From a virus, in the IMG/VR virus record IMGVR_UViG_3300031825_000369: DNA of 64,000 nucleotides; one strand, written 5' to 3'. Position 1 is the first letter of the stretch. Every line of letters starts with the position of its first letter. Under the pieces are notes generated by a model, which did no database searches, was not told where the DNA came from, and saw only the letters and a list, made by a program, of their open reading frames with translations. This document shows positions 9,538 through 37,609 of the stretch, piece by piece. The position numbers were made by a program, and so were the translations under genes.

Positions 9538-9541
9538 CGCG

Positions 9542-9742: not shown

Positions 9743-9753
9743 AGGGGCCGCCG

Positions 9754-10518
9754 TTAGGCGTCGGCTCCGCGGGTGAAGGTGGTCGCGTCATCCGTCAGGG
9801 CCGCGGTCCCGAGCGCCGTCACGCCGTCCGCCTTGAACAGCGTGTCGGTCGTCGCCGTCACGGTGCGCTTGTGGCGGAACCGCTGGTAGAGGTAGCGGAC
9901 CATCTTCGGCAGCGTCTGCGCGCCGGTCGACGGGAGCGCCGCGAGCTCCGCCTCGGTCGCGAACGCCGCGTCGGTGATGGCCGCGGCCGCGATCGCCCCG
10001 ACGCTCGCATCGATGCGCCCGCTCACGAGCGCCGCCGGCAACCGGGTCTGGATGTCGTTGGTGTCGGCGACGATCGCCGCGAGCTGGGTCGAGTTGCTGT
10101 CGATCTCGGTCCGGACGGCCGCCGCCGTCACGCCCGCCGCGAGCGGGTCGTAGCCCGCCAGCGCGATCGTCACGCCGTCGTCGACGGTGTTGGCCCCGGT
10201 CCACGAGATCACGACCTCATCGACGCCCGTCGCGAGCGCCGCGTTCGGGAGGTCGAGCCGGTAGAGGCCCGGCGCGTTGGTGGCGTCGACCTCGACGAAG
10301 CCGCCCGTCGCCCACGCGCCCGTGACGGTCTGGGTGGCCAGCGTGATGGCCGCCGCGGCCGCGCCCGCGCGCGTGTAGTAGACCTTGAGCCCCGCCGTGC
10401 CGAACGCGAGCCCGGTGAGGCCCATCCCGACCGGCGTGGTCGCCGAGCCGCGGATGAAGACGTAGATCGTCTTGCTGGTCGCGTCCTTCGCTAGCACTCG
10501 TGACATGAGGAGTCCCAT
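9754..10518 (-). CDS. Virion accessory/fibre-like protein, about 250 aa (start at 10518 or 10506)
   Basis: GLTGLAFGTAGLKVYYTRAG...GGFVEVDATNAPGLYRLDLP motif seen in phage structural proteins. Confidence 0.65.
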   Translation of the reverse strand: MGLLMSRVLAKDATSKTIYVFIRGSATTPVGMGLTGLAFGTAGLKVYYTRAGAAAAAITLATQTVTGAWATGGFVEVDATNAPGLYRLDLPNAALATGVDEVVISWTGANTVDDGVTIALAGYDPLAAGVTAAAVRTEIDSNSTQLAAIVADTNDIQTRLPAALVSGRIDASVGAIAAAAITDAAFATEAELAALPSTGAQTLPKMVRYLYQRFRHKRTVTATTDTLFKADGVTALGTAALTDDATTFTRGADA

Positions 10519-10534
10519 GGAGGCCGAAGAGAGA

Positions 10535-11596: not shown

Positions 11597-11841
11597 GACG
11601 CCCCCCCGTTCGCCACTGGTGTCACGTTTCTCGACATTGACAACGCACCGTCAGGCGCGGAACGTAGTGTGCGAGGCGGGAGCCCACGGCAGTCACACCC
11701 CGGCACAGGGATCGACAGATGAGACGCATCGGAGGCGGCGCGGCCGCGGTGCTGGCCCTCGTGGTGGCGGTGACGATCGTGTACCCGGCGGTGACCCTCT
11801 GGTCGATCATCAGAGGCGAGGGCGAGCCGTAGCCCACTCAC
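11593..11841 (-). CDS. Small ORF, frame ambiguous (82-aa His-rich frame or 71-aa frame 11622-11837)
   Basis: The 82-aa frame has GTGA overlaps at both ends; the 71-aa frame has higher GC3. Confidence 0.35.
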   Translation of the reverse strand: MSGLRLALASDDRPEGHRRVHDRHRHHEGQHRGRAASDASHLSIPVPGCDCRGLPPRTLRSAPDGALSMSRNVTPVANGGAS

Positions 11842-13748
11842 GGCGCGACCCCCGCCGTCGCCATCTCCACGGTGTCCAGGTCGCACCCCGGATCGGCGCC
11901 ACCCAAGCCGATGCCCTTGCCCGGACTCGTCACCGCGAGGCGGTAGTTGTGGCTCGCGGCGTCCACGAAGTCGGCGTCAGCCAGCACCGCCGCGAGCGTA
12001 GGGCTCACGCCCGCGTCCGGGTACACGTTGCCGTCGCCCTGCGGGAGCAGGTTGGTGTACTGCCCTTCGAGCCCGACCAGGAAGTTGCGCTTGAAACTCC
12101 AGCCCGTGGCGTATTTGTTGAGCCCCGCCACGCCGACGAAGCCACCCGAGTAGAAGAAGCTGCTGTTGTCGCTGTTCGTCGTGCTCGCGTTGTCCGAGAT
12201 GTCGAACCCCGTCGCTTCCTGCCCGGCCGGCACCGCGTCCGACACCGCCCACGCCGCGATGAGGTTCACGTTATGCACGAACGTGTTGAACCGGATCTTG
12301 AGGGCGTTCGTCGGGTTGACGAGCAGCAGCGCGTTCCCCGACTGACTTATGGTACCGGACGGCGCCCCGTTGGCGGTGACGATGCCGATGTCGTGGAACA
12401 GGTTGTGGTAGCACGCCACGCTGTGACACGGCTCTATGTCCGTTTCAATCGGGTCCCCGTACCCGCTCACGTTGAAGGCCATGCGCGCGCTCCGCGTGAG
12501 GTTGTAGCGGAACGTGACGTGGGAGGTCCCGAGCCCCGTCGATGCGCCCATGCCGTCGCCCGCGCTCTTGATCACGGTGGCCATCCCGTTCTGTGCGCCA
12601 GACGGGCAACGTTCGAGGACATTGCCCTCGAACAGCACGCGCTTCGCGTTCTTCAACTCGAACAGGCCCTTCATCGCGTACTTCGTGGCCCCGGCGTTCT
12701 CGGCGGGACACCACGCCTCGGGGTGCGCCAGATAATTGCGCCGCAACTCGAGGTCGCTCGGCTTCCCGTTCGCGGCCCCGAGCCCCGGCATGGCGCCGCC
12801 GAAGAACAACGGCACCGACCCACCGTCGATGTAGTTGTTCACGATTTTCAACGGCCCCGGCGTGTTCCACGCGGCCACGCCGTGCGTCTCGTCGCTCGCG
12901 TTGTACTGGCCGGCCACCCACGAGTCCACGAGCGCGCCGCGAATCGCTTCGAGCGTGACCCCGTTCTTGTTGCGCCCCTGCGGTGTGCCGTCGCCCGCGA
13001 GCCCGGTGTCACCCACCGGTCCCGTCACCAGAATCCGGTCGAGCACGATGTCGCGCGGGCAGTGTTCGAGCAGCGACTGCGACTGCTCGTCGAGCAGGGC
13101 CGGCTCGCGGGCGTGGATGCGCACCGTGAAGTAGATGACCCCCGTCGCCGTCGGCTCCGGCACGTTCGTGACGCCCATGACCCGATAGCGGTCCGCCCCG
13201 CGGCGACACGCAATCGTCGGGTTGTCGTTCCCGACCGCATGGAGCACCGGCGCGTTGGTCATCGTCGCCGGCGTGCAGCGGATGCCTTCCGCGCACGGCG
13301 CCGTCTCGGCCTCGATGTCGGTCCAGACGTTCGGGAAGGTGTGCGGCAGGAGCCACATGGTCCCCTGGTACGTCAGCCCCATCGCGAGCCGGATGCGCGT
13401 GTCGCCGTTGGTCGCCGCGCACGTCACGATCTCGGCGTTCACCGCGTCCATGTTCGCCGTCGGCGACCCCTGGTCGGTGATGAGGGTATCACGCACGTAT
13501 GTGCGCGACCCCTTCGCCGAGGTCACCCACGCCTGCGGCAAGTCGATCGTCGCGCCCAGGTCGAACGGGTGCGGGGCCGGGTTGTACGTCTCCGTGCTGA
13601 GCGCGGCGGGCGATGAGAACCCACCACCGCCGCCCGGTGCCGCCGTCGCCAGTCGCGCCTGCCCGTTGGCGTGCGCCGCGGCGATGAGGAACACGCCAAG
13701 CAGGAAGCGCCGCATCGAGCGGTCCATGGTCCGACGGAGGCGCTTCAC
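11838..13748 (-). CDS. Right-handed parallel beta-helix protein (glycan-binding/depolymerase-like), up to 636 aa
   Basis: WNTPGPLKIVNNYIDGG..PLFFGGA, PSDLELRRNY, KGLFELKNAKRVLFEGNVLE and FVDAASHNYRLAVTSPGKG motifs. Confidence 0.8.
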   Translation of the reverse strand: MKRLRRTMDRSMRRFLLGVFLIAAAHANGQARLATAAPGGGGGFSSPAALSTETYNPAPHPFDLGATIDLPQAWVTSAKGSRTYVRDTLITDQGSPTANMDAVNAEIVTCAATNGDTRIRLAMGLTYQGTMWLLPHTFPNVWTDIEAETAPCAEGIRCTPATMTNAPVLHAVGNDNPTIACRRGADRYRVMGVTNVPEPTATGVIYFTVRIHAREPALLDEQSQSLLEHCPRDIVLDRILVTGPVGDTGLAGDGTPQGRNKNGVTLEAIRGALVDSWVAGQYNASDETHGVAAWNTPGPLKIVNNYIDGGSVPLFFGGAMPGLGAANGKPSDLELRRNYLAHPEAWCPAENAGATKYAMKGLFELKNAKRVLFEGNVLERCPSGAQNGMATVIKSAGDGMGASTGLGTSHVTFRYNLTRSARMAFNVSGYGDPIETDIEPCHSVACYHNLFHDIGIVTANGAPSGTISQSGNALLLVNPTNALKIRFNTFVHNVNLIAAWAVSDAVPAGQEATGFDISDNASTTNSDNSSFFYSGGFVGVAGLNKYATGWSFKRNFLVGLEGQYTNLLPQGDGNVYPDAGVSPTLAAVLADADFVDAASHNYRLAVTSPGKGIGLGGADPGCDLDTVEMATAGVAP

Positions 13749-14122
13749 CCGCGGAGCGGCAGGACGTAGACTTTGGCCGAGCCGGCCGAGAGCGCCGTCA
13801 CCTCGATCGCGATGTCCAGCCCGTCGGCTTCGATCACGATGAGCGCGTCGCCGGTGATCGCGGCCGAGACGGTCGTGTCATCGCTCGCCACGCCCCCGAG
13901 CGAGCGGCGCCGGTACGGAATCGGGACGTAGCCGTTGGTCCCCGTGTGGGCGCCAGTCAGGCGGCCCTTCACGGTGAACGACCCGGTCAGCCCGGTGCCC
14001 ACGATCTGGACGAGCATGGACCCGACCGTCTCCTCGGACGTGTTGCCCAGCGCCAGCAGGCCGGTCTCGTTGACGTTCCAATAGCCCCGGCCGCCGGTCG
14101 TCTGCTGCTTGTTGTTCGCCAT
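13745..14122 (-). CDS. Small beta-rich virion protein, 125 aa
   Basis: Start MANNKQQ at 14122 (TGATG overlap); jelly-roll-like strands. Confidence 0.6.
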   Translation of the reverse strand: MANNKQQTTGGRGYWNVNETGLLALGNTSEETVGSMLVQIVGTGLTGSFTVKGRLTGAHTGTNGYVPIPYRRRSLGGVASDDTTVSAAITGDALIVIEADGLDIAIEVTALSAGSAKVYVLPLRG

Positions 14123-14691
14123 CAGGCCGCCGTCGCCGGGGTGCGGCGCGCGCCACGCGCCGGAGCGTTCGGCGGGTCGGCCGGCGGGTCGTCGGCCCCC
14201 TCGCGCATGAACGCGAGTTCGTCGTCGGCCTTCGGGACGAAGAACGGCACCGCCCACTTGGGCATGTCGCTCGAGAGCCCGAGCACCCACTCGTCACCGG
14301 CCCGCGCGGCGAGCACCGGCTCGACCGGGTACGGCTTCGGCCCGACGATGAGGAGCACCGAGGGCCCGGGCTCCTTCGGGTCGAACTTGTCGGCGTTCAC
14401 GGCGTGCCCGACCTTCATCATGTGCTCGGTCCACTCCTTGAGCGCGGCCTTGAGGTCCGACACCCATTCGTCGTAGGCGATCGTGAGCGCCTGGACGTTG
14501 TCCGGGTCGGCGGAGACCCGGAGGTACTGCTGCGGCGGGATGAGCGGCGCCGCGAAACTCGGCGACAGCGCCTCGCACGGATGGTCCGTGCGCTTGTCGA
14601 CGTTCGCGCCCCAGCGGCGGCCGTGCTGGTCCTTGTAAAGGCGGTAGCGGCGCTGGAGGGCCTGCGGGTGTTCGCCGGGTTTGACGGCCAT
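14122..14691 (-). CDS. Hypothetical protein, 189 aa
   Basis: GGAGG-like RBS region, coupled stop/start, globular composition. Confidence 0.65.
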   Translation of the reverse strand: MAVKPGEHPQALQRRYRLYKDQHGRRWGANVDKRTDHPCEALSPSFAAPLIPPQQYLRVSADPDNVQALTIAYDEWVSDLKAALKEWTEHMMKVGHAVNADKFDPKEPGPSVLLIVGPKPYPVEPVLAARAGDEWVLGLSSDMPKWAVPFFVPKADDELAFMREGADDPPADPPNAPARGARRTPATAA

Positions 14692-14710
14692 GGGAGGGTT
14701 CGGTTAGGCG

Positions 14711-15439
14711 TTAGGCACCGGACGGCACAACCCGCCCGGTTTCGATGTAGACGGCATCCGCAGCGGAGTCGTCGCCGTGGGCCAGGCGGGCGGCCGGGTG
14801 GTCGCGATCGACGCGTCGCGCCAGCCCGCCGTCCAGGATCGCCGGCGCGGCGCGCGTGACGTCGTCGCGCAGCGAGGCGTCGAGCGTGCGGACGATCTCG
14901 GTCCGGAAGCCGCGGGCACGCGCCTCGGCGCGCGCGGCGCGTTCGGCCGGGAGGCTCGCGTGCCGGCGGTTCGTCAGGACCGACAGCGCCCGGAGCTGCC
15001 AGAGCACGCGGCCATCGAGCCCCGCGTAGGGCAGCGCGCCGAGCGCCGGCATGGCCCCGTCGCCGTAGCCCATCCACCGGCGCCAGGTGGCATTCTCCGC
15101 CGTCGCGCGGTAGGGGTGGCCGCCGTCGGGCCCTTGGAGCACCCAGCACGGCACCGGGAGCGCGCCCTGCGTGAGCCAGTAGTGCGTGGCCCAAGCGTGC
15201 TCGGCGCAGTCGAACGGGTCGCCGAGCAATTGCTCGAGCAGGACCGACGGCGCGAACGCGGCCGGCATGCACTCGAACACGACCCAGCGCTGCGCCGGCA
15301 CGTCGGGCAGGCCGGGCACCCACGCGAGCGTCAGGTGACTCAGGCGCTCGCGGGGTGGGGCGATGCGGTGCAGCGCCGCCAGCCACGCGGCCGGCGGGTC
15401 CCACGACCAGCGGAAGAGCGCCGGACGCTTAGAGTCCAA
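14711..15439 (-). CDS. Hypothetical protein, about 242 aa (probable TTG start)
   Basis: Trp/Pro-rich ORF filling the late operon; the start overlaps the end of the upstream gene. Confidence 0.55.
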   Translation of the reverse strand: MDSKRPALFRWSWDPPAAWLAALHRIAPPRERLSHLTLAWVPGLPDVPAQRWVVFECMPAAFAPSVLLEQLLGDPFDCAEHAWATHYWLTQGALPVPCWVLQGPDGGHPYRATAENATWRRWMGYGDGAMPALGALPYAGLDGRVLWQLRALSVLTNRRHASLPAERAARAEARARGFRTEIVRTLDASLRDDVTRAAPAILDGGLARRVDRDHPAARLAHGDDSAADAVYIETGRVVPSGA

Positions 15440-15659
15440 TTTTCGCGTCCAGCTTCGCCGGGCCACTCGCCGCCGAGTCGGTAACGAGGGTGGCGTAGTT
15501 GACGTCGGTGACCCCGGCATCCGCGTCGAGCTTCGCGGTGAGGACCCGGAGGTTGGTGACCAGCTTGTTGTGTTCGGTCACGAGGTTCTGGAGCACGTCC
15601 TCGGCGCGGATCGCACCGGTGCCCAGCGCCGTGACCTTGATATCGTCGGGATTCGCCAT
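15429..15659 (-). CDS. Putative head fibre/decoration protein, 76 aa
   Basis: Coiled coil ending LTAKLDADAGVTDVNY, a motif seen in small proteins just downstream of capsid genes. Confidence 0.6.
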   Translation of the reverse strand: MANPDDIKVTALGTGAIRAEDVLQNLVTEHNKLVTNLRVLTAKLDADAGVTDVNYATLVTDSAASGPAKLDAKIGL

Positions 15660-15688
15660 GGAATCGGAATCGTTAGGGTCCGGATGCG

Positions 15689-15718
15689 GAGCGGGGCACC
15701 GGCATCGGTGCCCCGCTC
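15689..15718 (-). other. Perfect 13-bp-stem hairpin downstream of the major capsid gene
   Basis: GAGCGGGGCACCG-gcat-CGGTGCCCCGCTC; no U-tract follows on the coding strand. Confidence 0.7.
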
Positions 15719-15743
15719 ACACAGTCAGTCATCGGCCGAAGGC

Positions 15744-17024
15744 TCACGCCTCGGTCAGCGCGCTCCAGTAGGCCATGTTCCCACGGTTCGTGGTCACGAA
15801 CGCGTAGGGGAAGTCAAAACTCATCACCTTGGCGTTCTGGTCCTGGAGCTTGTCCTCGTTCGCGTTCTCGATCCCGTCGAGGCTTTCGGCGTCCTCGCCC
15901 GGCATCGGCACCATGGTCCAGCGGTGCAGCGTGCCCTTGTCCATGCCGATCCCGAACCCGGTCGGCACCTTCCGGCTCGAGAACTGTTCGATGGACTTCG
16001 TCTTCACGTTCCCGAGGATCTCCATGTTCAACGGGTCGTTGAACTGCACCGCGTTGGACGTGGACTGGTAGACGTCGCGCTCGACGCCCTGCGTCTGAAT
16101 CAGCAGGTTCATCTTGCCGCCGCCCAGGTTGGTGATCTGGTGCTGGCCCTTCTTGATCCGCGTGCCCGTGAGCCGCCCGCCCGCGGTGTCGGCCAAGGCC
16201 GGCATCCAGAGCGGGTACGTCGAGCCCGAGAGCCCGTGCACCGTCGTCGCGGTCAGGAAGTCGAGCAGTCCCGACGGCGCCTTGTTGTAGTCGGTGTGGG
16301 CGATCGTGCCCGTGGTGATCAGGTGACCGGCCGAGTTGGCGAGCACGATCTCGTCGCCGTCATCCGAGTCGACGGAGCCGGCCCAGGTGATCGTCAGGCC
16401 GTTCGTCGCGTGCACCGCCGTGATGATCCCGATCGCGTTGGCCACGAGCGCCCCGGTGCGGATCAGCGCCACGTAGTCGTCGACCTTGAAGAGCGACGCC
16501 AGGAACGCCGTGTCATCGAGCCCCGACTGCCCGTAAGCGTCCTTGAGCGCGTAGGTGCCCGACGCCTGCGTGGCGTTGGTCGAGGTCTTGGCCAGCACGC
16601 CGGTCGACACGCCGTAGAACGACGTCCCCACGCGGTTCGTCAGCCCCTCGATGAGCTTCTTGGTCTGGTACTTGGCCTGCCGGACGAGCTGCGCCTGGCG
16701 GAACTTCCGGTCCAGGTACTCGCTCGTGAGGGTGAACGAGAAGCGGTCGTTGTAGTTCGCCCACGTGAACGACAGCTCCTGCGGCGCGGCGGTCTTGGGG
16801 TTCGCCTCGTACCCGCCCTCGGGAATGAAGGCTCCCGAGCCCTGCTGGATGATGTCGATGGGCGTGGTGACTTCGCGCGCGCTCATGTCGAGATCGAACT
16901 CCTTGAGCCGCTTCGCGAGGGCCCACTCCTCGCACTTCGCCTGAAAGCCCTTGAGCACGTTGCCCTGGACCTTCCGGTACACTTTGGCGAGCGTCGTGCC
17001 CGCCGTCGTAATGCCGTAAGCCAT
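15744..17024 (-). CDS. Major capsid protein, 426 aa
   Basis: Position after the scaffold; G.FIPEGGYEANP, WANYNDRFSFTLT and FDFPYAFVTTNRGNMAYWS match HK97-fold capsid patterns; strongly biased codons. Confidence 0.85.
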   Translation of the reverse strand: MAYGITTAGTTLAKVYRKVQGNVLKGFQAKCEEWALAKRLKEFDLDMSAREVTTPIDIIQQGSGAFIPEGGYEANPKTAAPQELSFTWANYNDRFSFTLTSEYLDRKFRQAQLVRQAKYQTKKLIEGLTNRVGTSFYGVSTGVLAKTSTNATQASGTYALKDAYGQSGLDDTAFLASLFKVDDYVALIRTGALVANAIGIITAVHATNGLTITWAGSVDSDDGDEIVLANSAGHLITTGTIAHTDYNKAPSGLLDFLTATTVHGLSGSTYPLWMPALADTAGGRLTGTRIKKGQHQITNLGGGKMNLLIQTQGVERDVYQSTSNAVQFNDPLNMEILGNVKTKSIEQFSSRKVPTGFGIGMDKGTLHRWTMVPMPGEDAESLDGIENANEDKLQDQNAKVMSFDFPYAFVTTNRGNMAYWSALTEA

Positions 17025-17060
17025 GATAGTGGTTCGTCAGTGGTTAGGCGCCGCCGGGCG

Positions 17061-18239
17061 TCAGCCCGTCAGCACGTCACTCCAGTCGTCCGCGTCGAAC
17101 TGCTCCTTGAACTCGTCCCAGCTCGGCCGTGCGTGGGGCGCGGCCTTCTGTCTCCCCTGCTGCGGCGTTGCCGCGCGCGGCTTCGTGGGGGCGGGCGCTT
17201 GGGGCGCCGGTGCCACGGCCGCGGCGTTGCGCTCGGTGGCGGACTTTGCCGCCTCGAACCGCTGTCGGATGCGCGCGACGCGCTGGGCCTCGCGGCCCAA
17301 CACCTCGCGGAGGAACTCCTCGTTCACGCCAATGAAGCCCTTCGGGATGCCGTATTCCGGGTAATCCCGGTCGGCTTCCCAAAAGAGCTGCTGGCCATAC
17401 GTCGACCAGAGTTGCCCGAGGAGGTCCTGCCGCTCCTGCGGCGTCTCGGCGATCAGGGCGAGGTCCGGCGCTTGGAGCGCCTGGGTCACCGTCGTCTCGA
17501 GCCGTCCGGCGAGGAGCGGGATGATCTGCGCGCGCTCTTCCTCGGCGGCGCGCGCGGCCCGTTCCTGCTCGTGATACTGCAGCTGCGCGCGGGCTTCCGC
17601 GGCTTCGGCCTGGGCCTGGAGGATCGGGGCGTTGCGCTCGAAGTCCGCGAGCCAGTCGGCCACCGCGTCGGGCCCCTGCGCGAGCAGGTTGTCCATCGCG
17701 CTGAGGATTGCGTTGGCGCGGGCCTCGCGGTGCGTGCCGGCCTGCTCCGCGCGGCGCGCACGGTCAACGAGTTGCGTGCGTTCCGTCCGCCAACTCTCGC
17801 GGTTCGCGATGTAGTTGGGCCGGAGATGCTTCTCCCACGCCTCACGCGGGATGTACACGCCGTGCTCGTACTCGAGCGCGCCGGGGATCTCGACGTCCGA
17901 ATTGTCCGCGCGGAACTTCCACGGCTTCCCGCCGTCGGGCGGCGCGAACGCGGGAGGCGCCGCGGCCGCAACGGCAGCAGACGGGTCGACCGCAGCTCCG
18001 TCGGTCGCCGCGGGCGCTCCCGCTTTCGGGGCGAACGTCCCATCGGGGTTGCGCGGCCGGTCATCCGGCGCGGCCGGATCGGCGGGCGCCTCGGCGACTG
18101 GCGGTGCGTCGGGCGCCCCCTGGGCGCCAGCCTCCGCGGTCGCCGCCGGTGCGGCGGGGTCCTGCTCGTCACCCTCGTCGTTGAGCAGCGCGTCCCAGTC
18201 GCCCTCTTCGATCGGCGTTTCGGTGTTCGGAGCGGTCAT
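17061..18239 (-). CDS. Scaffolding protein, 392 aa
   Basis: Acidic, Pro/Ala-rich N-terminus (RNPDGTFAPK), long helices, acidic C-terminal helix; lies between portal and capsid genes. Confidence 0.75.
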   Translation of the reverse strand: MTAPNTETPIEEGDWDALLNDEGDEQDPAAPAATAEAGAQGAPDAPPVAEAPADPAAPDDRPRNPDGTFAPKAGAPAATDGAAVDPSAAVAAAAPPAFAPPDGGKPWKFRADNSDVEIPGALEYEHGVYIPREAWEKHLRPNYIANRESWRTERTQLVDRARRAEQAGTHREARANAILSAMDNLLAQGPDAVADWLADFERNAPILQAQAEAAEARAQLQYHEQERAARAAEEERAQIIPLLAGRLETTVTQALQAPDLALIAETPQERQDLLGQLWSTYGQQLFWEADRDYPEYGIPKGFIGVNEEFLREVLGREAQRVARIRQRFEAAKSATERNAAAVAPAPQAPAPTKPRAATPQQGRQKAAPHARPSWDEFKEQFDADDWSDVLTG

Positions 18240-18252
18240 CAGGTTCCTCGCG

Positions 18253-20604
18253 TTAGGCTGCGATCGAGAGGTTGGGCGCGGCGTTCGGGTCCGCCGGTGC
18301 GCCGTCCGGCGGTGCCGCGTTCTGCGGGTCAGCCGGGACGGCCGGCTGCGGAGTCACGGCCTGCACGGCGGCCTGGTACGCCATGTCGAGCGCGGCGCGC
18401 CACTCCGCCGGAAACTGGCCGTACTTGTGGCCCGCCATCGCGCGGCCGAGCTCACGCACCCGAAGCACGGCGACGTCGGGCTGGGCGTCGACCGGGCGCG
18501 GGTCGAAGATCGCCATCGCGCGCGGGTCAACCATCGGCCCTTGCGGCACCGGCGGAGCGCCGGGGATCGGCACCGGGGCGCCGGTCATCGGATCGGCCAT
18601 CACGGCCGGGGCGTACCCGCCTAACGGCACTGGTTCGGCGACGCCGTCTTCCCCCGGCCCGCCTTCCCACTTCGCGACCTGCTGGCGCACGCGGAGCACG
18701 TGCGGGTTGTCCTGCCAGCCGATCTCGGAGCCGGTCGACGTGAGCACCATCTCCCGGAGATCGTCCGGCGGGATCAACCCCGCCTGCCCATACATCATCG
18801 CGCGCTCGGCCTTCTGCATCGGCGAGAGCATCGAGAGCGAGCCCGGCACCAGGCTGACGTCCTTCGTGCTGCGCAGGTCGGCGCCGCGCCACGCCCGGAC
18901 CTTGAACTCCCCGTCCTCGCCCGTGTAGCGGAGGAGCGCCGGCACCGTGTAGTACCGGCGCACGAGTTGGAGCTTGACCCGCCCCGCGCGCTCGCTGGCG
19001 CGCGCCGCGTTCTGCCGGATGTCGGAGAGCCCGGCCTGCACCTGCGAGATGATCGTCGCGGCGTGCTTGCCGGACTGGACCGACTTGTCCTGGAGCCCCT
19101 GCCCCGCTTCCTGCAGCGAGCTCGCGTCGTCCATCTCGCGCGTCGCGATCGCGAACAGGTCCCCCGCCGGCTCGAGCGCGTCGGTCGGCACGTCTTCGTA
19201 TTTCGGCTCGCCCCCGGGATTGATGGGGATGTGCGTCATGTACTGGAGATGCGCCTGCTTGCCCTGGAGGATCGAATTCGTCGGGACGTAGACTTTGCGG
19301 TTGAGGATGCGATCGAGGATGTCCTGCATCGCGCCCGCGAGCGACGCGCGCCACTCACTCGCGGGGCCGAGTAGGTGCATCAGTCCGATGCCGTGCGGGT
19401 TGCCGCGCGGGCCACGGAACTGCTTGATCTGTGTGAGCGGAATGTCCATCGGCTCGCGCCCGTTCGGGCCGTCCATCACCCAGCCGCGGCGGAACACGAC
19501 CACCGACTCGCCCAGCACCAGCATCTCGAGCCCGTCCGGATAGCTGGGACACTCGGTCGCGTACGCCAACAGCGTGAACACGAGCCGATCGTCGACCCGT
19601 TCCGGTTTCGGGTCCTTCGGCTTCCCGTTCAGTTGCGGCAGCAGGCGTTCCGTCCGCTCCGGTCGCTCGGACCGCGTGAGGCGCTCGACGACTTCCGGCG
19701 GCGTCTCCGCCAGTTCCGGATACCACCCCTTCAGCGTGCCCCAGGTGTGGTACTTCGCGACGAGCACGATCTCGGCGTCCCAGAGATCGTCGGCCGTCTC
19801 CGGCCAGAACCGCACATGATTCGCCGGCAGCACCTCGCGGCAGAGCTTCGGATGCCAGCGGAGCGCGGCCGCCTTGGTGTCGTCCGTCAGCGCACCGTCC
19901 GGCGCGACGAACCGCCGCACGAACGGGCCCGGCCGGGGCTGGCCGGTCATCGGGTCGCGCGTCGCGTCCTCGGCGGTCGTCGCGCCCTGCCCCGCTTCCA
20001 CGGTCACCGGATGCCGGCCCCCGCCCTTCGGGTCGGCGAAGTAGCGGATATAGCCGGAGCCGAACGACGACGCGACATCGAACGCGGCGCGGTGCGCCTC
20101 GAGATCGTTCAGCGTCGATTCCGCGTCCACGTCGCGCAGCACGCGCGTCGACAGGTCGGCCGCGTCGCGGTCCTCGCTACTCCCGCTTTCGGGCGTCGCC
20201 TTGAGCACCGGCGGGTCCGCGTACACCTGGGAGCAGAGCCGTTGACAGAGGCGGTCGGACTTGTTGAAGACGGCCGGAGGGACGTCGGCGCTCCCGGGTG
20301 GCTTGTAGACCTGCCAGCTCTGTTGATCCTGCGTCTTCGTCGCCCAGACGTTGCAGTCGCCGCCGCGCCGCTTCTCGTTCACTTCCCACTCGACTTCGTG
20401 GCGCGCGTACTTCTCGCGCTGCGTCGTCCACATCCGGACGAGCGCTTTCGCGGCCTCCTTGGGCTTGAGCGTGAGCAGGTCGCCCGGCTCGGCGGGATCG
20501 CCGTAGACGCGAGAGGCGCCCTGTTCAGGCGCCTCGGTCGACTCCGGCCGGTCGATCTCGTCGGGGATCCCCGGGGCGATCCCGCCGTCGACTTCGCCGA
20601 TCAT
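18253..20604 (-). CDS. Portal protein, 783 aa
   Basis: Start ATG 20604 (ATGA overlap); large helical protein with a Pro-rich C-terminus upstream of scaffold and capsid genes; P22-like portal size. Confidence 0.85.
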   Translation of the reverse strand: MIGEVDGGIAPGIPDEIDRPESTEAPEQGASRVYGDPAEPGDLLTLKPKEAAKALVRMWTTQREKYARHEVEWEVNEKRRGGDCNVWATKTQDQQSWQVYKPPGSADVPPAVFNKSDRLCQRLCSQVYADPPVLKATPESGSSEDRDAADLSTRVLRDVDAESTLNDLEAHRAAFDVASSFGSGYIRYFADPKGGGRHPVTVEAGQGATTAEDATRDPMTGQPRPGPFVRRFVAPDGALTDDTKAAALRWHPKLCREVLPANHVRFWPETADDLWDAEIVLVAKYHTWGTLKGWYPELAETPPEVVERLTRSERPERTERLLPQLNGKPKDPKPERVDDRLVFTLLAYATECPSYPDGLEMLVLGESVVVFRRGWVMDGPNGREPMDIPLTQIKQFRGPRGNPHGIGLMHLLGPASEWRASLAGAMQDILDRILNRKVYVPTNSILQGKQAHLQYMTHIPINPGGEPKYEDVPTDALEPAGDLFAIATREMDDASSLQEAGQGLQDKSVQSGKHAATIISQVQAGLSDIRQNAARASERAGRVKLQLVRRYYTVPALLRYTGEDGEFKVRAWRGADLRSTKDVSLVPGSLSMLSPMQKAERAMMYGQAGLIPPDDLREMVLTSTGSEIGWQDNPHVLRVRQQVAKWEGGPGEDGVAEPVPLGGYAPAVMADPMTGAPVPIPGAPPVPQGPMVDPRAMAIFDPRPVDAQPDVAVLRVRELGRAMAGHKYGQFPAEWRAALDMAYQAAVQAVTPQPAVPADPQNAAPPDGAPADPNAAPNLSIAA

Positions 20605-24273: not shown

Positions 24274-24686
24274 CACTCGCGCACCAACCTGACGCGTACC
24301 GCGTCGTTGCCCTGCGTGTCGGTCTCGGTGATCGTCGTCCCGAGGCCGTATTTCGCGAGGAGCTCGAGCGCCTTGAGCTGATCGCCGACGCCGAACACCG
24401 CCATCGGCGCACTGGTCGCGGCGGTGCAGCTGCAATCGGGTCCGCCTTCCTTCCCGCACGTGCACACGTCCGCGCGCTTGACGCCTTTCGGCAGGTATGG
24501 CACGAAGTGGCCGTCCGCGATCCGTTCCAGCGTCTTGATGCGCCGCTGGAACGATCCGCGCAGCTTGTCGCGCAGCACCGAGGGGAGGCGTCCGCTCCGG
24601 CCCTTCTTCCCGCCGGAGTTGCCCGGGTTCCCAGGCGTCAGATGCGACGGGAGCCCCCCGCGGTGGACGCGCAATTGTGGCGGCAT
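24273..24686 (-). CDS. terS: Terminase small subunit, 137 aa
   Basis: PGNPGNSGGKKGRSGR N-terminus and DQLKALELLAKYG; directly coupled to terL. Confidence 0.75.
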   Translation of the reverse strand: MPPQLRVHRGGLPSHLTPGNPGNSGGKKGRSGRLPSVLRDKLRGSFQRRIKTLERIADGHFVPYLPKGVKRADVCTCGKEGGPDCSCTAATSAPMAVFGVGDQLKALELLAKYGLGTTITETDTQGNDAVRVRLVRE

Positions 24687-25126
24687 CAGGCCGTCTTGCG
24701 CTGGCGGTTCGGGCCCGTGAACTGGCCGCGCGTGCCCTGAATCAGCCGCTCGATGCGCGCAACCGTGCGAGACTTCCGCCGCGTCTCGGTGTGGGGCGCG
24801 TCGATGACCGGCACGCCCGCGCGGCGCAGCTGGCGACGCACCTTCTCGCGCCGCTCGTACGCCTGACGCTCGCGCACCGCGTGGCCGGACTCGGTCGACC
24901 GCGGCGCGGCGCCCGGGATGACCTCGGCCGTCCATGCCGGCTTGGCTTCTTGCGGACCGCCGACGAAGAGCCCTTCGGCGTTATGGTCCTTGGGCATGCC
25001 GGACCAGTAGCGCGGATCGTCGCGCGTGAAAGCACCGAGGCCGGCACCCACGACGGGGCCGGCCTCATTGATGTCGGGATGGAGCCGGGAGACCAGAGGG
25101 TCCGCCGGCGCGCGTGTGTGTGGCAT
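24686..25126 (-). CDS. Hypothetical protein, 146 aa (first gene of the presumed late operon)
   Basis: The stop overlaps the terS start. Confidence 0.55.
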   Translation of the reverse strand: MPHTRAPADPLVSRLHPDINEAGPVVGAGLGAFTRDDPRYWSGMPKDHNAEGLFVGGPQEAKPAWTAEVIPGAAPRSTESGHAVRERQAYERREKVRRQLRRAGVPVIDAPHTETRRKSRTVARIERLIQGTRGQFTGPNRQRKTA

Positions 25127-25179
25127 TCTACGCCAAGAAACGCGCGTGCAGCCTCAGCTGCTACGTACGATCGTACAGG

Positions 25180-25380
25180 CTAGGACGACGAATCAGGAAG
25201 ATCCACCGAGCCCGGAGCGACCACCTGCCCGTTTTCGTCAATGTCGAAGGAGAATGGCCCGAGCTCAATGCTACCGATGACGAAGGTGACGCCTCGGAAT
25301 TGGCTTGATCGAATATCGACCCCGGGCAGCGCGGCGAACAACGCACGCGGCACCGACATCTCGTTGTCGATTGCCATCAC
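25180..25380 (-). CDS. Hypothetical protein, 66 aa
   Basis: AAGGGG RBS; globular composition. Confidence 0.5.
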   Translation of the reverse strand: MMAIDNEMSVPRALFAALPGVDIRSSQFRGVTFVIGSIELGPFSFDIDENGQVVAPGSVDLPDSSS

Positions 25381-25396
25381 ATCCCCTTGCAGTCAG

Positions 25397-25654
25397 TCAC
25401 GCCGCGATCCCGCGCTCAAGCAGCTCCTCGGCGTGGCGGAGGATCTTCCAGGACGCGGGGCCGTCGCCGTCCAGCCAAGTCGCGATCTGCTCGACGTGCA
25501 TTTTCACGGTGCGGACCGTGATCCCGAGCCGCGCCGCGATCCCCTCGTAGTCGAGCTCCTCGGCGTAGAGCAGCACGACGACGTCGCGCTGACGCCGCGT
25601 GAGCCGCCGCTCGAGCGCGCAGGGGGCCGGCTTGAGGCGCGTGGGGGCGTTCAT
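25397..25654 (-). CDS. LuxR/sigma-70 region 4-type HTH regulator, 85 aa (candidate late activator)
   Basis: LTRRQRDVVVLLYAEELDYEGIAARLGITVRTVKMHVEQI is a GerE/LuxR HTH; lies upstream of the terminase genes. Confidence 0.85.
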   Translation of the reverse strand: MNAPTRLKPAPCALERRLTRRQRDVVVLLYAEELDYEGIAARLGITVRTVKMHVEQIATWLDGDGPASWKILRHAEELLERGIAA

Positions 25655-25884
25655 GGAAAGGGCAGGTCCATGATGTATTCGAATACCGGCTCGCCGGTGC
25701 GCCGCACGTACACCGACCGCGTCATCCGCATCCGGATCGGGACGACCCCGTCGGGCAGCGGCGAACTATCGCGCGTGATTTCGGTGAACCGGAGGGTATC
25801 CCGCGTGACTTGTAGTTGCTGACCGCCGGACGGCCCGCCGACCAGCGTCACCAACTCCAGATCGTACCCGTTAGGCATCCGCAC
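25651..25884 (-). CDS. Hypothetical protein, 77 aa
   Basis: LVGGPSGGQ...Y.R.....FEY pattern common in small phage ORFs; ATGA overlap. Confidence 0.6.
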   Translation of the reverse strand: MRMPNGYDLELVTLVGGPSGGQQLQVTRDTLRFTEITRDSSPLPDGVVPIRMRMTRSVYVRRTGEPVFEYIMDLPFP

Positions 25885-25892
25885 ATCCCAGC

Positions 25893-25921
25893 TTGACAGT
25901 TAGGGCCATTGGCCCTAATAT
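25893..25921 (+). promoter_or_regulatory. Sigma-70-type promoter with a palindromic operator in the spacer
   Basis: TTGACA-17 bp-TAATAT; perfect inverted repeat TTAGGGCCA-T-TGGCCCTAA at 25900-25918. Confidence 0.85.
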
Positions 25922-25969
25922 GGTGTATGCGCCAGGGCGCTCCAGCCCGGCCAACCAAGAGAGGGCACC

Positions 25970-26506
25970 ATGGAAGCGATCGCACTCACCCCGAAGTCCA
26001 CCGCCGCGTTGATCCGCACCATCCTCCGCCGCGCGTTCCCCGCAACGAAGTTCAGCGTCACCATCGGCCGCGGGTCCGGCGTGTCGTCCGTGCGGGTCCG
26101 ATGGACTGACGGCCCGACCGTAAAGAGCGTCGAGCGGTTCGTCGCGCCCTTCGAGTGCGGGTCGTTCGACGGCATGACGGACTCCTACAACTACGCCAAG
26201 GGCGCCGACCGGTACCTGATCGTAGACGGGCAGACGTACCACACGGGCACGCGGTACGTGCAGACGTCGCGCACCGTCTCGCCCGCGCTCGCGAACCGGT
26301 GCATCGCCGCGATCGCCGCGTATTGGGGTGGCGTCGATGTCGTCCCCCAGGCCGTGCCGGCGACGTGGGGCGACGGGTACCGGCTCGAGCCCGCGATCGG
26401 TCGCCAGCCGGTGCGCCCTGACCTTGGCGGATTCGATCACGACTGGGACACCATGATCTACCGTTGCGCCAGCGACCGTACCCAATTCACCCGGACCCAT
26501 GACTGA
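25970..26506 (+). CDS. LPD29-like (large polyvalent protein-associated) domain protein, 178 aa
   Basis: IR.ILRRAFP.TKFSV...S.RVRWTDGPT..SV..F...F....FDGMTD signature; strong AGAGGG RBS. Confidence 0.75.
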   Translation: MEAIALTPKSTAALIRTILRRAFPATKFSVTIGRGSGVSSVRVRWTDGPTVKSVERFVAPFECGSFDGMTDSYNYAKGADRYLIVDGQTYHTGTRYVQTSRTVSPALANRCIAAIAAYWGGVDVVPQAVPATWGDGYRLEPAIGRQPVRPDLGGFDHDWDTMIYRCASDRTQFTRTHD

Positions 26507-26714
26507 CATTGAGCTGTTAGAACGCGCGATCGAAGCGTCGGGCCTTTCCGCCCGGCGCTTCGCCGTTCGCGTCCTCGACGTTGACGAGCGGACCGTTAGG
26601 CGTTGGGAGGGCAACGAACGCGCGATCCCCGGGCCCGTGCTCCAGCTCTGCCGGCTCGTCATCGAGAACCCGCGCCTGGTACTCGCCACGCTCGGCATCG
26701 ACCGCGAGGAGTAG
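26499..26714 (+). CDS. Small XRE-type HTH regulator, 71 aa
   Basis: GLSARRFAVRVLDVDERTVRRWEGNERAIP; overlaps the upstream stop. Confidence 0.85.
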   Translation: MTDIELLERAIEASGLSARRFAVRVLDVDERTVRRWEGNERAIPGPVLQLCRLVIENPRLVLATLGIDREE

Positions 26715-26718
26715 CGGG

Positions 26719-27222
26719 TCACTCCGTCGCCCCGCCTTCGGCGCGCGCGCGCACCACCGCCTCCGCCGCCTCTTGGGAGAAGTAGACGTATCGCGATCGG
26801 ATGATGAGCTCGTTGTCGAGGTAGTTCGGGTTCGCCGGCAACACCAGGAATCCGACCTCGAGATAGTCGTGCTCGTCCTCCGCGTCCCACTTCTCCATCC
26901 TCGGGTCGACCGCCTGATAGGCGTTCCACTCCCAGGCCGTGTTGCCCGACTTCGTCGCCTTCCAGAGCCGGCCCTCGATGCTGGCCTCCGACTCCAGCCA
27001 TTGCTGGCGGTACACGATCGCCACCGCGGGAATCCCGGAGAGCTCGGGATCGAGCGTCGTGTCATTCTCGAAGAGCAGCCACGCCTCCCGCGCCTGAGGC
27101 AGCGGGACGATGACGGTGCGATGCCCCATGCGTGCGTGCGGCGGCTCGTCAGCGGTGAACTCGCGGCCCGCGCTCGCGATGTGCTCGCGTGGCGGGCGTG
27201 GTCCGGCGGCGTCGGTGGTCAT
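26719..27222 (-). CDS. Hypothetical protein, 167 aa
   Basis: Aromatic-rich globular ORF with a GGAG RBS. Confidence 0.6.
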   Translation of the reverse strand: MTTDAAGPRPPREHIASAGREFTADEPPHARMGHRTVIVPLPQAREAWLLFENDTTLDPELSGIPAVAIVYRQQWLESEASIEGRLWKATKSGNTAWEWNAYQAVDPRMEKWDAEDEHDYLEVGFLVLPANPNYLDNELIIRSRYVYFSQEAAEAVVRARAEGGATE

Positions 27223-27259
27223 GCCAGGCTCCGGTTTTCGGTTGGGTTTTCTGCAGCGT

Positions 27260-27375
27260 TGCGGGTCGATGCGGGCCAGTTTTCCATTTCAGACGTAGTA
27301 CGCGCGCGCGATGTAGCGTAGGGAGAGAATCCTCTAGAACGTCCATAATGCAAGACCGTACCGCATCGACCCGCA
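27260..27375. other. 15-bp perfect inverted repeat flanking an AT-richer 86-bp spacer; candidate replication origin
   Basis: TGCGGGTCGATGCGG (27260-27274) and CCGCATCGACCCGCA (27361-27375), abutting the primase-helicase stop codon. Confidence 0.55.
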
Positions 27376-29106
27376 CTAGTCGTCGTGCTGGTCGCTCTTC
27401 TTGCCCTTTTCCTCCGGCGGCCGAATCCATAACCCCTTGAATGCAACAGTCTTGGAGTGCCCCGTCGAGAACCGGTCGAACCCGTGCGACTCGAGCGCCT
27501 GACTGAATGATTTCGAGGAACCGGCGTCCTCGCCGTGTTTGCTTGCCCACTCCTGCCACGACTGATAGAGCACGGCAAACAGTTCCGTGTGCGTCTTCCC
27601 TTCGACACAGCAATCGGCCACCCACGCGAGTAGAGAATCCTCCTCCTCGAAATACTTTTCGGTGGCTTTTGTCACCGAATCCGGCGGTTTGAGCCCCTGG
27701 TCGATCCACTCGATGCACCCGACGACCATCCAGTTCAGAATGGCGGGCCATTCCTCGCGGAGCTTCTCCGGGAGGTCCTTGTCCTTCTCTTTCTCGGTGA
27801 TCCGTTGCGTCCACGGGATCAGGTGCAAGCGTCGCCGAATGGCCTCGTCGACCGAGCGAATCGACGGCTTGTAGTTGCCGGCGATGACCAGCTTGAACTT
27901 GGGTTGATAGGTGAAGAAGTCCGCGCGCATGAACCGCGCGGAGATCGGATCGCCCCCGGTCAACGCCTTGATCTTCGACTCCGCCCAGCGGCGCCCCTGC
28001 TCCGTTTCCTGCGCCGTCACGAGCCGCGCCCCGCGGAGCATCGCGAGCTCGGTGGGGTGGCGGTCCGACTGCGACGCGGTGAAGGCTTCAATCGGGGCGA
28101 TTTTCGCGTAGTCGCCCAGGATGCCGTTGATCGTGTTGTGAAACGTGCCCTTGCCGTTCCCGCCGGTGCCGTACGAGAAGAACAGGGCGTGCTCGGTCGT
28201 GAGGCCGGTGAGCGCGTAGCCACACACCCGTTGGAGGAACTTCTGTAGTGTCTCGTCGCCGTTGGTGGCCCACTTGAGGAACGCGAGCCACCGCGGGCAT
28301 TTATCGCCGAGCCCCACGGCGGTGATCTTGGTCCCGTATTCGTCGGGCCGTGACGCCCGAACCGCGCCGGTGCGGAGCTCGATCGTTCCGTCGGGCGTGT
28401 TCAGGATCCACTCGTGCGCGTCCCACTGGTCCATGGTGGCCGCGAGCCGGCGATCGCTCTTCGCGAGCGCCGTAGCCGCGTTCACCGTCTTGGCGCTCGT
28501 GATGATCGACGCGAGCTTCACGCTCTCGGCCCGCGCGCGCTCGGCGTGCTCGCGGAGCACGGGCCGGGCGAGGTCAAAGACGTGCAGCGTCTCGTCCTCT
28601 TTCCAGCGGGTGCCGTCCCACATATACCACCGCTTCCACTTCTCCGTGTAGCGGAGCGTGTCCTGATACCGCTCGGTGAACGCGAGCGCCAGGGCGTCGT
28701 CACTGTACTCCGGCGGCAGCACGGGAGCGTCCGACTCGGCCGGTATCGTGACTGCCCCGCTCGTGGTGCTCGGCCCGTGCTCGCCGATCTCCGTCGGCGG
28801 GATCACACCAACGACGCGCCCCTCCTTGCGCGCGCGGGCCGGCTTGTTCGCGGCCGCCACGAGTGCCGCGTCGACGTCCACGGAGAGCCTGAGGAGCACC
28901 TCCGAGACTTCCGTCCGCATCTCTTCGGGCAGGCGCCCCACGACCGCGGTTCGCTTACTCTCCTCGCCAACGTCAACCCTGTCCTTGAGCAACGGCGTGT
29001 CCAGATCGCTCTTGCGGAAGAGCGTCAGATTGCATTTGGACTGCCCGTTGACCACCGCGACCGCGCGCACGGTCGCGCCCTCGATCACGACCGGCTTATA
29101 CGCCAT
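27376..29106 (-). CDS. P4/D5-family SF3 primase-helicase, 576 aa
   Basis: D5-N region (WYMWDGTRWKED), GTGGNGKGT Walker A, LRGARLVTAQE, KALTGGDPISARFMR, AIRRRLHLIPW. Confidence 0.93.
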   Translation of the reverse strand: MAYKPVVIEGATVRAVAVVNGQSKCNLTLFRKSDLDTPLLKDRVDVGEESKRTAVVGRLPEEMRTEVSEVLLRLSVDVDAALVAAANKPARARKEGRVVGVIPPTEIGEHGPSTTSGAVTIPAESDAPVLPPEYSDDALALAFTERYQDTLRYTEKWKRWYMWDGTRWKEDETLHVFDLARPVLREHAERARAESVKLASIITSAKTVNAATALAKSDRRLAATMDQWDAHEWILNTPDGTIELRTGAVRASRPDEYGTKITAVGLGDKCPRWLAFLKWATNGDETLQKFLQRVCGYALTGLTTEHALFFSYGTGGNGKGTFHNTINGILGDYAKIAPIEAFTASQSDRHPTELAMLRGARLVTAQETEQGRRWAESKIKALTGGDPISARFMRADFFTYQPKFKLVIAGNYKPSIRSVDEAIRRRLHLIPWTQRITEKEKDKDLPEKLREEWPAILNWMVVGCIEWIDQGLKPPDSVTKATEKYFEEEDSLLAWVADCCVEGKTHTELFAVLYQSWQEWASKHGEDAGSSKSFSQALESHGFDRFSTGHSKTVAFKGLWIRPPEEKGKKSDQHDD

Positions 29107-32216: not shown

Positions 32217-32361
32217 CGGGAACCCCCCGCGCGCGAAAGTCGTACGAAACGTCGTACGCTGCGATTTTTTTGGTCCCGGGCGGCCGCGCGCTCCGTACGC
32301 TTCCTAACGCTTCCTACTCTGAGCGCGAGCCGTTGACCCCGCCGTTGCGGGAGCGACGTTT

Positions 32362-32413
32362 GACTTAGGATCCAGTGGGGCAACCCGTCCGGGTTCGAGT
32401 CCCGGCTTTCGCA
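32362..32413 (+). other. attP core = 3' half of tRNA-Leu(UAG)
   Basis: GA-CTTAGGA (TAG anticodon loop)-TCCAG, long variable arm TGGG-GCAA-CCCG, T-arm CCGGG-TTCGAGT-CCCGG, acceptor CTTTCGC-A. There is no D-arm; it lies 22 bp from the int stop. Confidence 0.88.
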
Positions 32414-32434
32414 TCTCCTTGTTGCACAACGCAT

Positions 32435-33685
32435 TTAGTCATCCCTCCTGAGCTCGGCGCGCGGGCGCTCCTCGTCCGCAGTCGCACGAGCGGTCGTAGT
32501 CGGATTCACGAGGTAAGGCACTTTCGGTTTGCCTTCGCCTTTCGATTCGGTCGCGCGTTGCACTTCGGCGAGCCGGTCCTCGAGCGTGCGCGTGATGTGG
32601 GCGTAGGTCTCGGTGACCTGGTAGACCGTGTTCCCGAGGAGATCGGCGATCCACTCCCACGACATCCCCTTGAGGCGCCATCGCACCGCGCACGAGTGGC
32701 GCGCGTCCTTGAGCGTGTAGTCCACCACGCCGGCGGCCTTGCACCCCTGCTCGTGATGGTGATGGAGCATGTGCCGCGTCACCCCCGGGAACACGTCATC
32801 GTTAGGCCCGAGGGCCATCTCGGCGACGTAGGCGCGGAGCCGCGGCAGCGCCCAGGGTTCGATGAACACAACGCGGTTCACCAGCCGGCGCGACGTCTTC
32901 CCCTTCACGTGCGCCGTGCCCTGGTCCAGGTCCAGGTGCCGGAGCTTGAAGTGCGGCGGGAGCGCGTACCCGACGTCCGTGGTGCTCGCCATAACGAACG
33001 CCAGCGCCGCCCGGATCCGTGCGGCCAGGGGCCGCGCCTCGCGCGTCGGGTTGACCGCGTCGACGATCGCCCGGTCGGTCGCTTCCGTCTCCCACCGCTC
33101 GCGCTTCTTGTTCTTGGCCGGCGACGCAACCCGCCCCTTGATCGGGTTCTCCGTGAGCACGGTCATCTCCAGCAGGTACGCGACGAAGGAGTAGAGGGCG
33201 TACAGGTACTTACGCCGTGTCCCGCTCGTGACGTCGGGCAGCTCCGAGAGCCATCGGCTCACGGTCGCCGGCGTCAGGTCCGCGCTCGTGAACGTGCCCG
33301 TGACCAGCGTCTCCACCTGCGCGCGGTACGTCGTCGCCGTGGTGGGGTTGTCCGTGTTCCGCCGGACCCACTTCCCCCACGCGTCGAGATGCCCCGCGAG
33401 CGGGACCGCCGAGAGCTCGGCGCGGAGATCGTCGAGCCGGCGCGGCGCGTAGAACTGCTCGTAGAGCCGGAACAGCGTCAGCTTGCGCCCCTGCACCTTC
33501 CGCCCCTCGGCGACGGCGTACAGGAACTCGCGCGTCTCCGCGCGCTCGGCGAGATGGTCGCGCATCCGCACGAGCTCCTTGAGCATCGCGTCGCCGTCGA
33601 TCCCCGCGCTCCGCTGCACCAGCTTGCCCGTTCGCGTCGGGAGGTAAATCTGCCCGCGCGAGCCCTTCATGAACGCGGCGCTCAT
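32435..33685 (-). CDS. int: Tyrosine recombinase/integrase, 416 aa, atypical active site
   Basis: SAM-like core-binding domain (TATTYRAQV, TRRKYLYALYSF), KGKT, YTLKDARHS, IADLLGN, TETYAH; adjacent to attP. Confidence 0.88.
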   Translation of the reverse strand: MSAAFMKGSRGQIYLPTRTGKLVQRSAGIDGDAMLKELVRMRDHLAERAETREFLYAVAEGRKVQGRKLTLFRLYEQFYAPRRLDDLRAELSAVPLAGHLDAWGKWVRRNTDNPTTATTYRAQVETLVTGTFTSADLTPATVSRWLSELPDVTSGTRRKYLYALYSFVAYLLEMTVLTENPIKGRVASPAKNKKRERWETEATDRAIVDAVNPTREARPLAARIRAALAFVMASTTDVGYALPPHFKLRHLDLDQGTAHVKGKTSRRLVNRVVFIEPWALPRLRAYVAEMALGPNDDVFPGVTRHMLHHHHEQGCKAAGVVDYTLKDARHSCAVRWRLKGMSWEWIADLLGNTVYQVTETYAHITRTLEDRLAEVQRATESKGEGKPKVPYLVNPTTTARATADEERPRAELRRDD

Positions 33686-33993
33686 AGGTCGATCCGGTAC
33701 GTGAGGCGTGAGGCGACGTACGCGAGGCACTGCGACTTGAGATAGCGCACGTTCCCGCGCGTCTTGCCGGGCTTCGTCAGCGGCGCGCGCGGCACGTCGC
33801 TCTTTTCCAGCCACTCCGGCGACACCTTCATCAGCGCCGCGGCTTCGTCCAGGTCCAGCACTTCATCGTTGAGTGCGGCGAGGAACCGGAGGGCGCGCTC
33901 GACGGCGTTCGGTGCGCCAATGGCCCCGTCTGACGGCGACGGGGCCACGGGCACCACGGGGCGGCGAAGCGGCGCCGCACCACCACGGCTCAC
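33682..33993 (-). CDS. xis: Excisionase-like winged HTH (HTH_17 type), 103 aa
   Basis: EVLDLDEAAALMKVSPEWL...VRYLKS; directly upstream of int with an ATGA overlap. Confidence 0.75.
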   Translation of the reverse strand: MSRGGAAPLRRPVVPVAPSPSDGAIGAPNAVERALRFLAALNDEVLDLDEAAALMKVSPEWLEKSDVPRAPLTKPGKTRGNVRYLKSQCLAYVASRLTYRIDL

Positions 33994-37291: not shown

Positions 37292-37501
37292 TCAGTCGGA
37301 CGACGCGGCCGCCACGGAGTCGCGAGAGATCACGACCTGACCGGCGCGCATTTCCGCCACCAGTTCACCCGCGATGACGCGGGTGAGCACCTTGTGGCGA
37401 GTGCAGCCGAGCGCCTCCGCCGCCTTCGGCAGGGTCATCCACCGGTCACCCATCCCCGGCGTTTTTGCCGGGGTCTTCTTGCGAGCCGCCGCAGTCGACA
37501 T
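37292..37501 (-). CDS. Cro-position DNA-binding protein (HTH_17/Xis-like), 69 aa
   Basis: WMTLPKAAEALGCTRHKVLTRVIAGEL; divergent from the repressor gene. Confidence 0.8.
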   Translation of the reverse strand: MSTAAARKKTPAKTPGMGDRWMTLPKAAEALGCTRHKVLTRVIAGELVAEMRAGQVVISRDSVAAASSD

Positions 37502-37521
37502 ATGATCCCTCAGGACGTATC

Positions 37522-37609
37522 TGCTACAGAACGGAAGCAGTTGCTACGCACTGAGTATAATGCTACGCCATGCGTACAGTCAACGTGCAATAGCTACGCA
37601 CCTGTAGCA
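37522..37609. promoter_or_regulatory. Operator array (five WGCTAC half-sites)
   Basis: TGCTAC at 37522, 37542 and 37561; AGCTAC at 37592; inverted GTAGCA at 37604; all in the AT-rich cI/cro intergenic region. Confidence 0.7.
37554..37583 (-). promoter_or_regulatory. Early lytic (PR-like) promoter
   Basis: Minus strand TTGACT-18 bp-TATACT, pointing at the cro-position gene. Confidence 0.75.

Follow-up and report, generated by a model that had tools for sequence, protein, structure and literature searches.

The locus considered here raises the question of why a phage carries two genes on the plus strand, behind a strong promoter of their own, amid genes that all run the other way, and what these two genes do. 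The window, i.e., the whole stretch of 64,000 nt that was analysed (IMG/VR record IMGVR_UViG_3300031825_000369), is concatemeric: it derives from a circular phage genome of 44,523 bp, and positions 1-19477 repeat exactly at 44524-64000, so that features recur with a 44,523-bp period. Near 32370, next to an integrase gene (32435-33814), there is a tRNA-Leu-like attachment site, and the same phage is found in a separate assembly (L001), where it is fused at the attachment site to host genes, namely VirJ-like and MprF-like genes. Because this assembly shows a phage–host junction at the attachment site beside the integrase, the phage is temperate. A facing pair of sigma-70-like promoters at 37479-37583 is probably the lysis-lysogeny switch. 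In the integrated state, the replication and packaging genes would be parted from the leftward promoter near 37583 and may therefore need excision for their expression.

The two-gene cassette is flanked on one side by a replication block on the minus strand, comprising RecD-like helicase, AEP primase and D5 helicase, and on the other by a sigma-region-4 HTH gene, which is followed by the terminase and a P22-like portal gene. Every neighbouring called gene is on the minus strand, in agreement with the original prediction of a plus-strand cassette inside a minus-strand operon. The features of the locus and of the attachment site are the following:

25651-25878, minus strand: divergent gene of 75 aa, its start 14 nt from the -35 box; beyond it the sigma70-region-4 HTH gene and then the packaging genes
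25893-25921, plus strand: sigma-70-type promoter, with -35 TTGACA (25893-25898), a 17-nt spacer and -10 TAATAT (25916-25921)
25900-25918, no strand assigned: predicted operator, a perfect 9-1-9 palindrome with half-sites TAGGGC and GCCCTA and a 5-nt spacer, overlapping the -10 box
25931-25951, plus strand: 5' leader hairpin with a 3-bp lower stem, a 1-nt bulge, a 4-bp upper stem and a 6-nt loop
25959-25965, plus strand: Shine-Dalgarno-like site
25970-26506, plus strand: LPD29 cargo gene, encoding a stand-alone protein of 178 aa (pI 9.1)
26499-26714, plus strand: XRE-type HTH gene of 71 aa, predicted autorepressor with recognition helix RTVRRW, its start overlapping the LPD29 stop
26719-27222, minus strand: converging orphan gene of 167 aa, the last gene of the helicase/AEP primase/D5 block
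32360-32414: tRNA-Leu-like attachment site, with its counterpart at L001:16390-16450

The near-consensus promoter that had been predicted matches the consensus at 10 of 12 positions and is the sole promoter-like site in 24500-28000, where 0.3 would be expected. The palindrome, predicted to fill the spacer as a perfect 19-bp repeat, is indeed perfect and additionally reaches into the -10 box, taking up the spacer plus the first three -10 bases. Elsewhere in the 44.5-kb genome, perfect inverted repeats with 9-bp arms occur only twice, both GC-rich, and a search of the phage genome for a second operator copy found none. The ribosome-binding site that had been called strong is present, although it is only a fair GAGG-type site, short of the full consensus. 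The overlapping HTH gene was recognised correctly, as the two ORFs overlap by 8 nt and the second product has an XRE-type fold in the model. A strong core promoter enclosing an inverted repeat, as found here, is characteristic of the acr-aca-type layout.

The association between operator and HTH gene recurs across genomes. The exact 17-bp operator core is present in 38 other viral contigs (IMG/VR), usually directly after TTGAC, and the promoter-operator layout of this phage is seen at operator sites in other phages. With the orientation of the operator set by the -35 match, independently of the HTH, a member of the HTH family is encoded downstream, no more than 2.5 kb away, at 31 of 43 viral sites compared to 2 of 43 in reverse, and at 24 of 27 compared to 1 of 31 for sites with at least 1.2 kb of flanking DNA, while in bacterial genomes it lies downstream of the operator core at 13 of 29 sites compared to 1 of 29 in reverse, these counts, and the HTH-based one below, including some near-duplicates. 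A related palindrome of 16 bp, one base shorter, served as a control and has the HTH at only 2 of 45 sites. Starting from the HTH, a related operator is found inside a TTG promoter at 15 of 27 loci, most of them with the hairpin, and starting from the hairpin yields 75 sites, 12 of which are in promoter context, with the HTH downstream at 8 and in reverse at none. Each of four entry points (operator, HTH, hairpin and LPD29) retrieves the same cassette layout, and the promoter-palindrome-ORF-HTH architecture, which had been proposed for a search with other cargo genes, occurs across phages and bacterial genomes. A small HTH gene that closes its operon and is tied to a repeat across genomes is a further property of the acr-aca layout that the cassette displays. 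The self-regulation originally proposed is well supported by this comparison, and the HTH very probably represses its own promoter via the palindrome.

Two loci (L189 and L250) contain two adjacent operons with doubled operators each and a single HTH after the LPD29 gene, likely a case of multi-operon control. An operator-like palindrome in a repeated element of a Faecalibacterium MAG (L231, L233, L236, L246) has no HTH and is probably unrelated. One HTH clade (L206, L207, L209, L212, L214, L216, L218-L220, L222, L227) has the same half-sites with a 4-nt spacer; it mostly lacks a loop arginine equivalent to Aca1 R59 and offers a natural pair for spacer read-out. The operator spacer (5 or 4 nt) tracks this arginine (19 of 23 vs 1 of 11). 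Co-evolution of spacer and arginine was nevertheless rejected, since the 4-nt group is one clade and hence one event.

As a single sequence, the 71-aa HTH stays below every Pfam cut-off (best HTH_29, E 0.013) and has neither a significant match among solved structures nor a phmmer match to solved Aca proteins. Members of its family match the HTH_31, HTH_3 and Xre-like Pfam models, and four members weakly match Aca2_YdiL. A profile of 31 operator-linked members has as its best solved relatives Aca10 (E 1.5e-9), Aca3 (E 5e-7) and Aca2 (E 1e-6), followed by MbcA, HigA2, YdiL and Aca1 (Aca1 E 4e-3). Structure prediction gives an XRE bundle of five helices (pLDDT 95), with HigA2, Aca2, Aca10 and Aca1 in the top fold rows, none of them below E 0.03. 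In Aca1, the essential, DNA-reading residues are R44, R47 and R59 (PMC8633003), which align by eye to R31, R34 and R41 of the HTH; of these, R31 and R34 show no variation among 50 close homologues.

The acrIF1-aca1 operon of Pseudomonas phage JBD30 (PDB 7VJM, 7C0G; PMC8633003) resembles the cassette in several respects. The operators are equal in length and frame, with two base differences per half-site between Aca1 IR2 and the operator here, and in both operons the cargo comes first and the HTH is terminal. The key arginines map across, although the two regulators are only remotely similar in sequence, as the profile E-value and the missing direct phmmer match indicate, and the cassette carries LPD29 instead of an Acr and a single operator copy. 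The operators of Aca10 (PDB 7XI5; PMC9410906), the best solved match of the profile, and of Aca6 have a 5-bp half-site and an AWT centre frame in common with the operator here, which is thus of the Aca1, Aca6 and Aca10 frame, but their half-sites are of the CGCTC and GCGCAC types, in contrast to GGGCC. The GGGCC half-site is in none of the nine listed Aca consensus motifs (Aca8 has none), the operator has no occurrence in the accessible part of the promoter set of PMC9410906, and a literature search returned no paper containing its sequence. Aca2 of phage ZF40, a dual DNA and RNA repressor (PMC6765145), likewise has a promoter inverted repeat and a leader hairpin, but is ~120 aa long, dimerises through a C-terminal domain and recognises a TTCG core, compared to the 71 aa of the HTH. 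These sequence comparisons suggest that the HTH works like an Aca, within the same HTH group. It apparently falls outside the named Aca families, in a comparison with the solved Aca proteins and the listed consensus motifs, and, with no validated Acr partner among the cargo proteins scanned, it is not formally an Aca.

A second potential site of regulation, absent from the original prediction, is a 21-nt hairpin between promoter and ribosome-binding site that ends 18 nt before the ATG. The published Aca1 RNA motif (10.64898/2026.07.27.740549) spans ~20 nt downstream of the start site; up to two unpaired bases set its 3-bp lower stem apart, and another ~20 nt separate its end from the start codon. 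The hairpin agrees with this motif in shape, including lower stem and bulge, and in position, and one aca6 leader has a similar hairpin. In an alignment of 36 leaders, 85.7% of the cells are paired, with 17 double-sided changes, and in the 13 closest loci 97.8% are paired, with one lower-stem position of four pair types as the sole covarying pair; the rows were picked by the upper stem, which is itself nearly invariant. The predicted folding of the cassette's own leader does not stand out from that of shuffled sequences (z -0.5 to -1.6), and an Rfam scan of the leader found no family. Apart from a spacer that is longer by one base, the upper stem is similar to the operator, and G-U pairs show no strand bias (14 vs 14), for which reasons the hairpin, a candidate RNA site for the HTH, could also be a second DNA site. 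The HTH may bind the leader hairpin and lower translation as Aca1 and Aca2 do, control at the RNA level being slightly less than an even prospect. That the hairpin might be a mimic of its own operator has become less likely, as the same hairpin stands behind other operators, including an Aca1-type one. At the latter locus (L334:3680-3740), the HTH has an Aca1-like helix, which suggests a continuum with Aca1.

The cargo under the operator is freely exchanged. The cargo genes, up to five in some cassettes and none in others, encode proteins with a median of 85 aa that are nearly all unrelated and mostly orphans. This exchange bears on the reading of the pair as a type II toxin-antitoxin system in HigBA order, with LPD29 as the toxin and the HTH as antitoxin and autorepressor. 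Such a system would account for the toxin-first order with gene overlap and for HigA2 in the top fold rows of the HTH model (TM ~0.7, E above 0.03). However, the same HTH and operator occur with dozens of unrelated cargo genes instead of in a fixed pairing, the HTH is a bare DNA-binding domain without a toxin-binding extension, and most LPD29 genes have no HTH partner, which makes this reading highly improbable. The named cargo consists of ArdC with a metallopeptidase (L171, E 5e-41), at a locus where no RTVRRW-type HTH was found in the DNA examined, and of LPD29 twice more (L189, L216). No known Acr was found by Pfam among the 77 + 10 (~87) cargo proteins, NCBIfam, PHROGs and PADLOC having been run on the 77 only. 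A 60-aa acidic cargo protein (L192:44-223, minus strand) shares a nine-residue motif, as judged by eye, with an unnamed gene of a published acrIC6-aca6 operon, and has no Pfam or PDB match.

The cargo of the present cassette, predicted as LPD29-like, is a clear member of Pfam PF18847 (E 1.5e-23; 83.7 bits against a gathering cut-off of 27), with residues 9-104 covering model positions 4-93 of 93. Compared to the LPD29 of polyvalent proteins (PMC5512222), it stands alone, without LPD30, and has a 70-residue C-terminal extension that is typical of a close subfamily. The protein model is confident (pLDDT 94.9), with conserved WTDGP and FDGMTD motifs and conserved aspartates D47, D67 and D71. A Foldseek search of the PDB with the model gave no match at E 0.001, the sequence has no match in the PDB, and the matches in fold searches of BFVD and the Atlas are all either further LPD29 proteins or proteins without a name. 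The best VIA-align matches (Z 7.0, rmsd 2.9, 65 aligned) are BON, ring-building and KH-like alpha/beta domains, an arrangement that is common; none of these fold searches pointed to a function. DNA-mimic inhibitors are acidic, unlike the LPD29 protein here, which is basic.

LPD29 is found on 341 plasmids, 231 of them conjugative, and occurs as a fusion with, or next to, LPD30, DUF4942, DUF3560 and DNA methyltransferases. An Aca-class HTH lies downstream of LPD29 in 11 of 94 non-redundant loci, counting that of the present phage, compared to 0 of 89 control stretches, and ~88% of LPD29 loci are without such a regulator; the HTH partners, judged by eye, include Aca2-like (L058) and Aca10-like (L045, L014) proteins. 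In a relative (L005:5913-12385), LPD29 heads a run of ~19 small counter-strand genes next to the terminase, behind a degenerate form of the present promoter and hairpin. Four LPD29 genes in aca4 operons have already been published and proposed as candidate anti-defence cargo (10.64898/2026.07.27.740549), there with a KorA-like Aca4 regulator to which the regulator here is unrelated. The repeated capture of LPD29 behind Aca-type regulators suggests that it is wanted early and briefly, which would fit counter-defence without proving that role. By association, with ArdC under the same operator and LPD29 behind several Aca-type regulators, an anti-defence role may be put at even chances; a role against restriction specifically is doubtful, restriction-type defence being a first guess.

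Regulation might also be as proposed, with LPD29 serving host takeover or mobile-element competition through early host-protein binding or superinfection exclusion, instead of inhibiting a defence system. The cargo is overwhelmingly orphan, Aca-like genes frequently occur with no known acr gene (PMC9410906), and the function of LPD domains in polyvalent proteins is unresolved (PMC5512222), all of which leaves room for such a role. Against it, the only nameable cargo in the scans besides LPD29 is the anti-restriction protein ArdC, and LPD29 is repeatedly found behind Aca-type regulators as well as next to methyltransferases; a role in takeover or competition is accordingly rather unlikely.

The cassette had been described as an inserted moron. 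It is an accessory unit, as this implies, but recent insertion is not borne out, given its host-like composition and the cassettes at the same spot in relatives. Its GC (0.68) and GC3 (0.89) are like those of the terminase and portal genes and the rest of the genome, so that it does not show the foreign composition of a recently acquired moron; nor is there a terminator-like site of its own. Three contigs that share the terminase or portal (L003, L005, L256) have a counter-strand cassette at the same place, in L256 with a nearly identical operator, the same hairpin, an HTH of 60% identity and different cargo. Upstream of the terminase in ~10 independent terminase relatives, the cassette is absent. 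A search turned up no near relatives suited to comparing the site with and without the cassette. The locus is more aptly described as an exchange site of long standing than as a newly inserted element.

As the original prediction stated, no terminator-like site follows the HTH gene, Rho-dependent termination being invisible to these scans. The converging gene ends only 4 nt from the end of the HTH gene, and such tail-to-tail abutment is common in relatives. Read-through until repression is therefore possible, as is the antisense RNA into the replication operon that had been suggested. The cassette could even act by interference, its rightward promoter colliding with leftward transcription until repressed and delaying replication or late genes. 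The short gap without a terminator would allow this, and 24500-28000 contains no leftward consensus promoter, so that leftward transcription probably crosses the cassette. However, the unit occurs in both orientations and in a wide range of unrelated contexts, and the ~10 terminase relatives do without it at this position, so that interference is quite improbable as its purpose.

The best explanation, held with somewhat better than even confidence, is that the cassette is an autoregulated accessory operon of the acr-aca type with LPD29 as an early anti-defence factor. Given the consensus promoter and the Aca precedent, host sigma-70 RNA polymerase would transcribe the cassette once repressor-free phage DNA enters, and LPD29 would be produced first. 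The coupled HTH would then build up, dimerise and, in all likelihood, occupy the palindrome over spacer and -10 box and shut the promoter, which would likewise end read-through into the converging genes. Such burst-then-shut-off expression would follow from the Aca precedent. LPD29 itself would most likely be an early, non-catalytic binding protein that shields the incoming phage DNA from host defence.

The layout of the cassette is well known and LPD29 has already been flagged in the literature; the regulator is apparently unnamed. Aca-type regulators are the standard bait for phage counter-defence genes, and a lone 17-bp query recovers small orphan cargo genes by the dozen, with hosts among the Alpha- and Betaproteobacteria and the Spirochaetes as well as uncultured ones. 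The compact stand-alone LPD29 with its confident model is a convenient construct for the function of a domain that is widespread in phages and plasmids. In a more far-reaching and unlikely version, the RTVRRW HTH would be an unnamed, cross-phylum repressor of the Aca class that reads both a DNA operator and a leader RNA hairpin, its operator would serve as a tag for finding many new counter-defence genes, and LPD29 would be a real defence inhibitor recruited independently by several Aca-type regulators.
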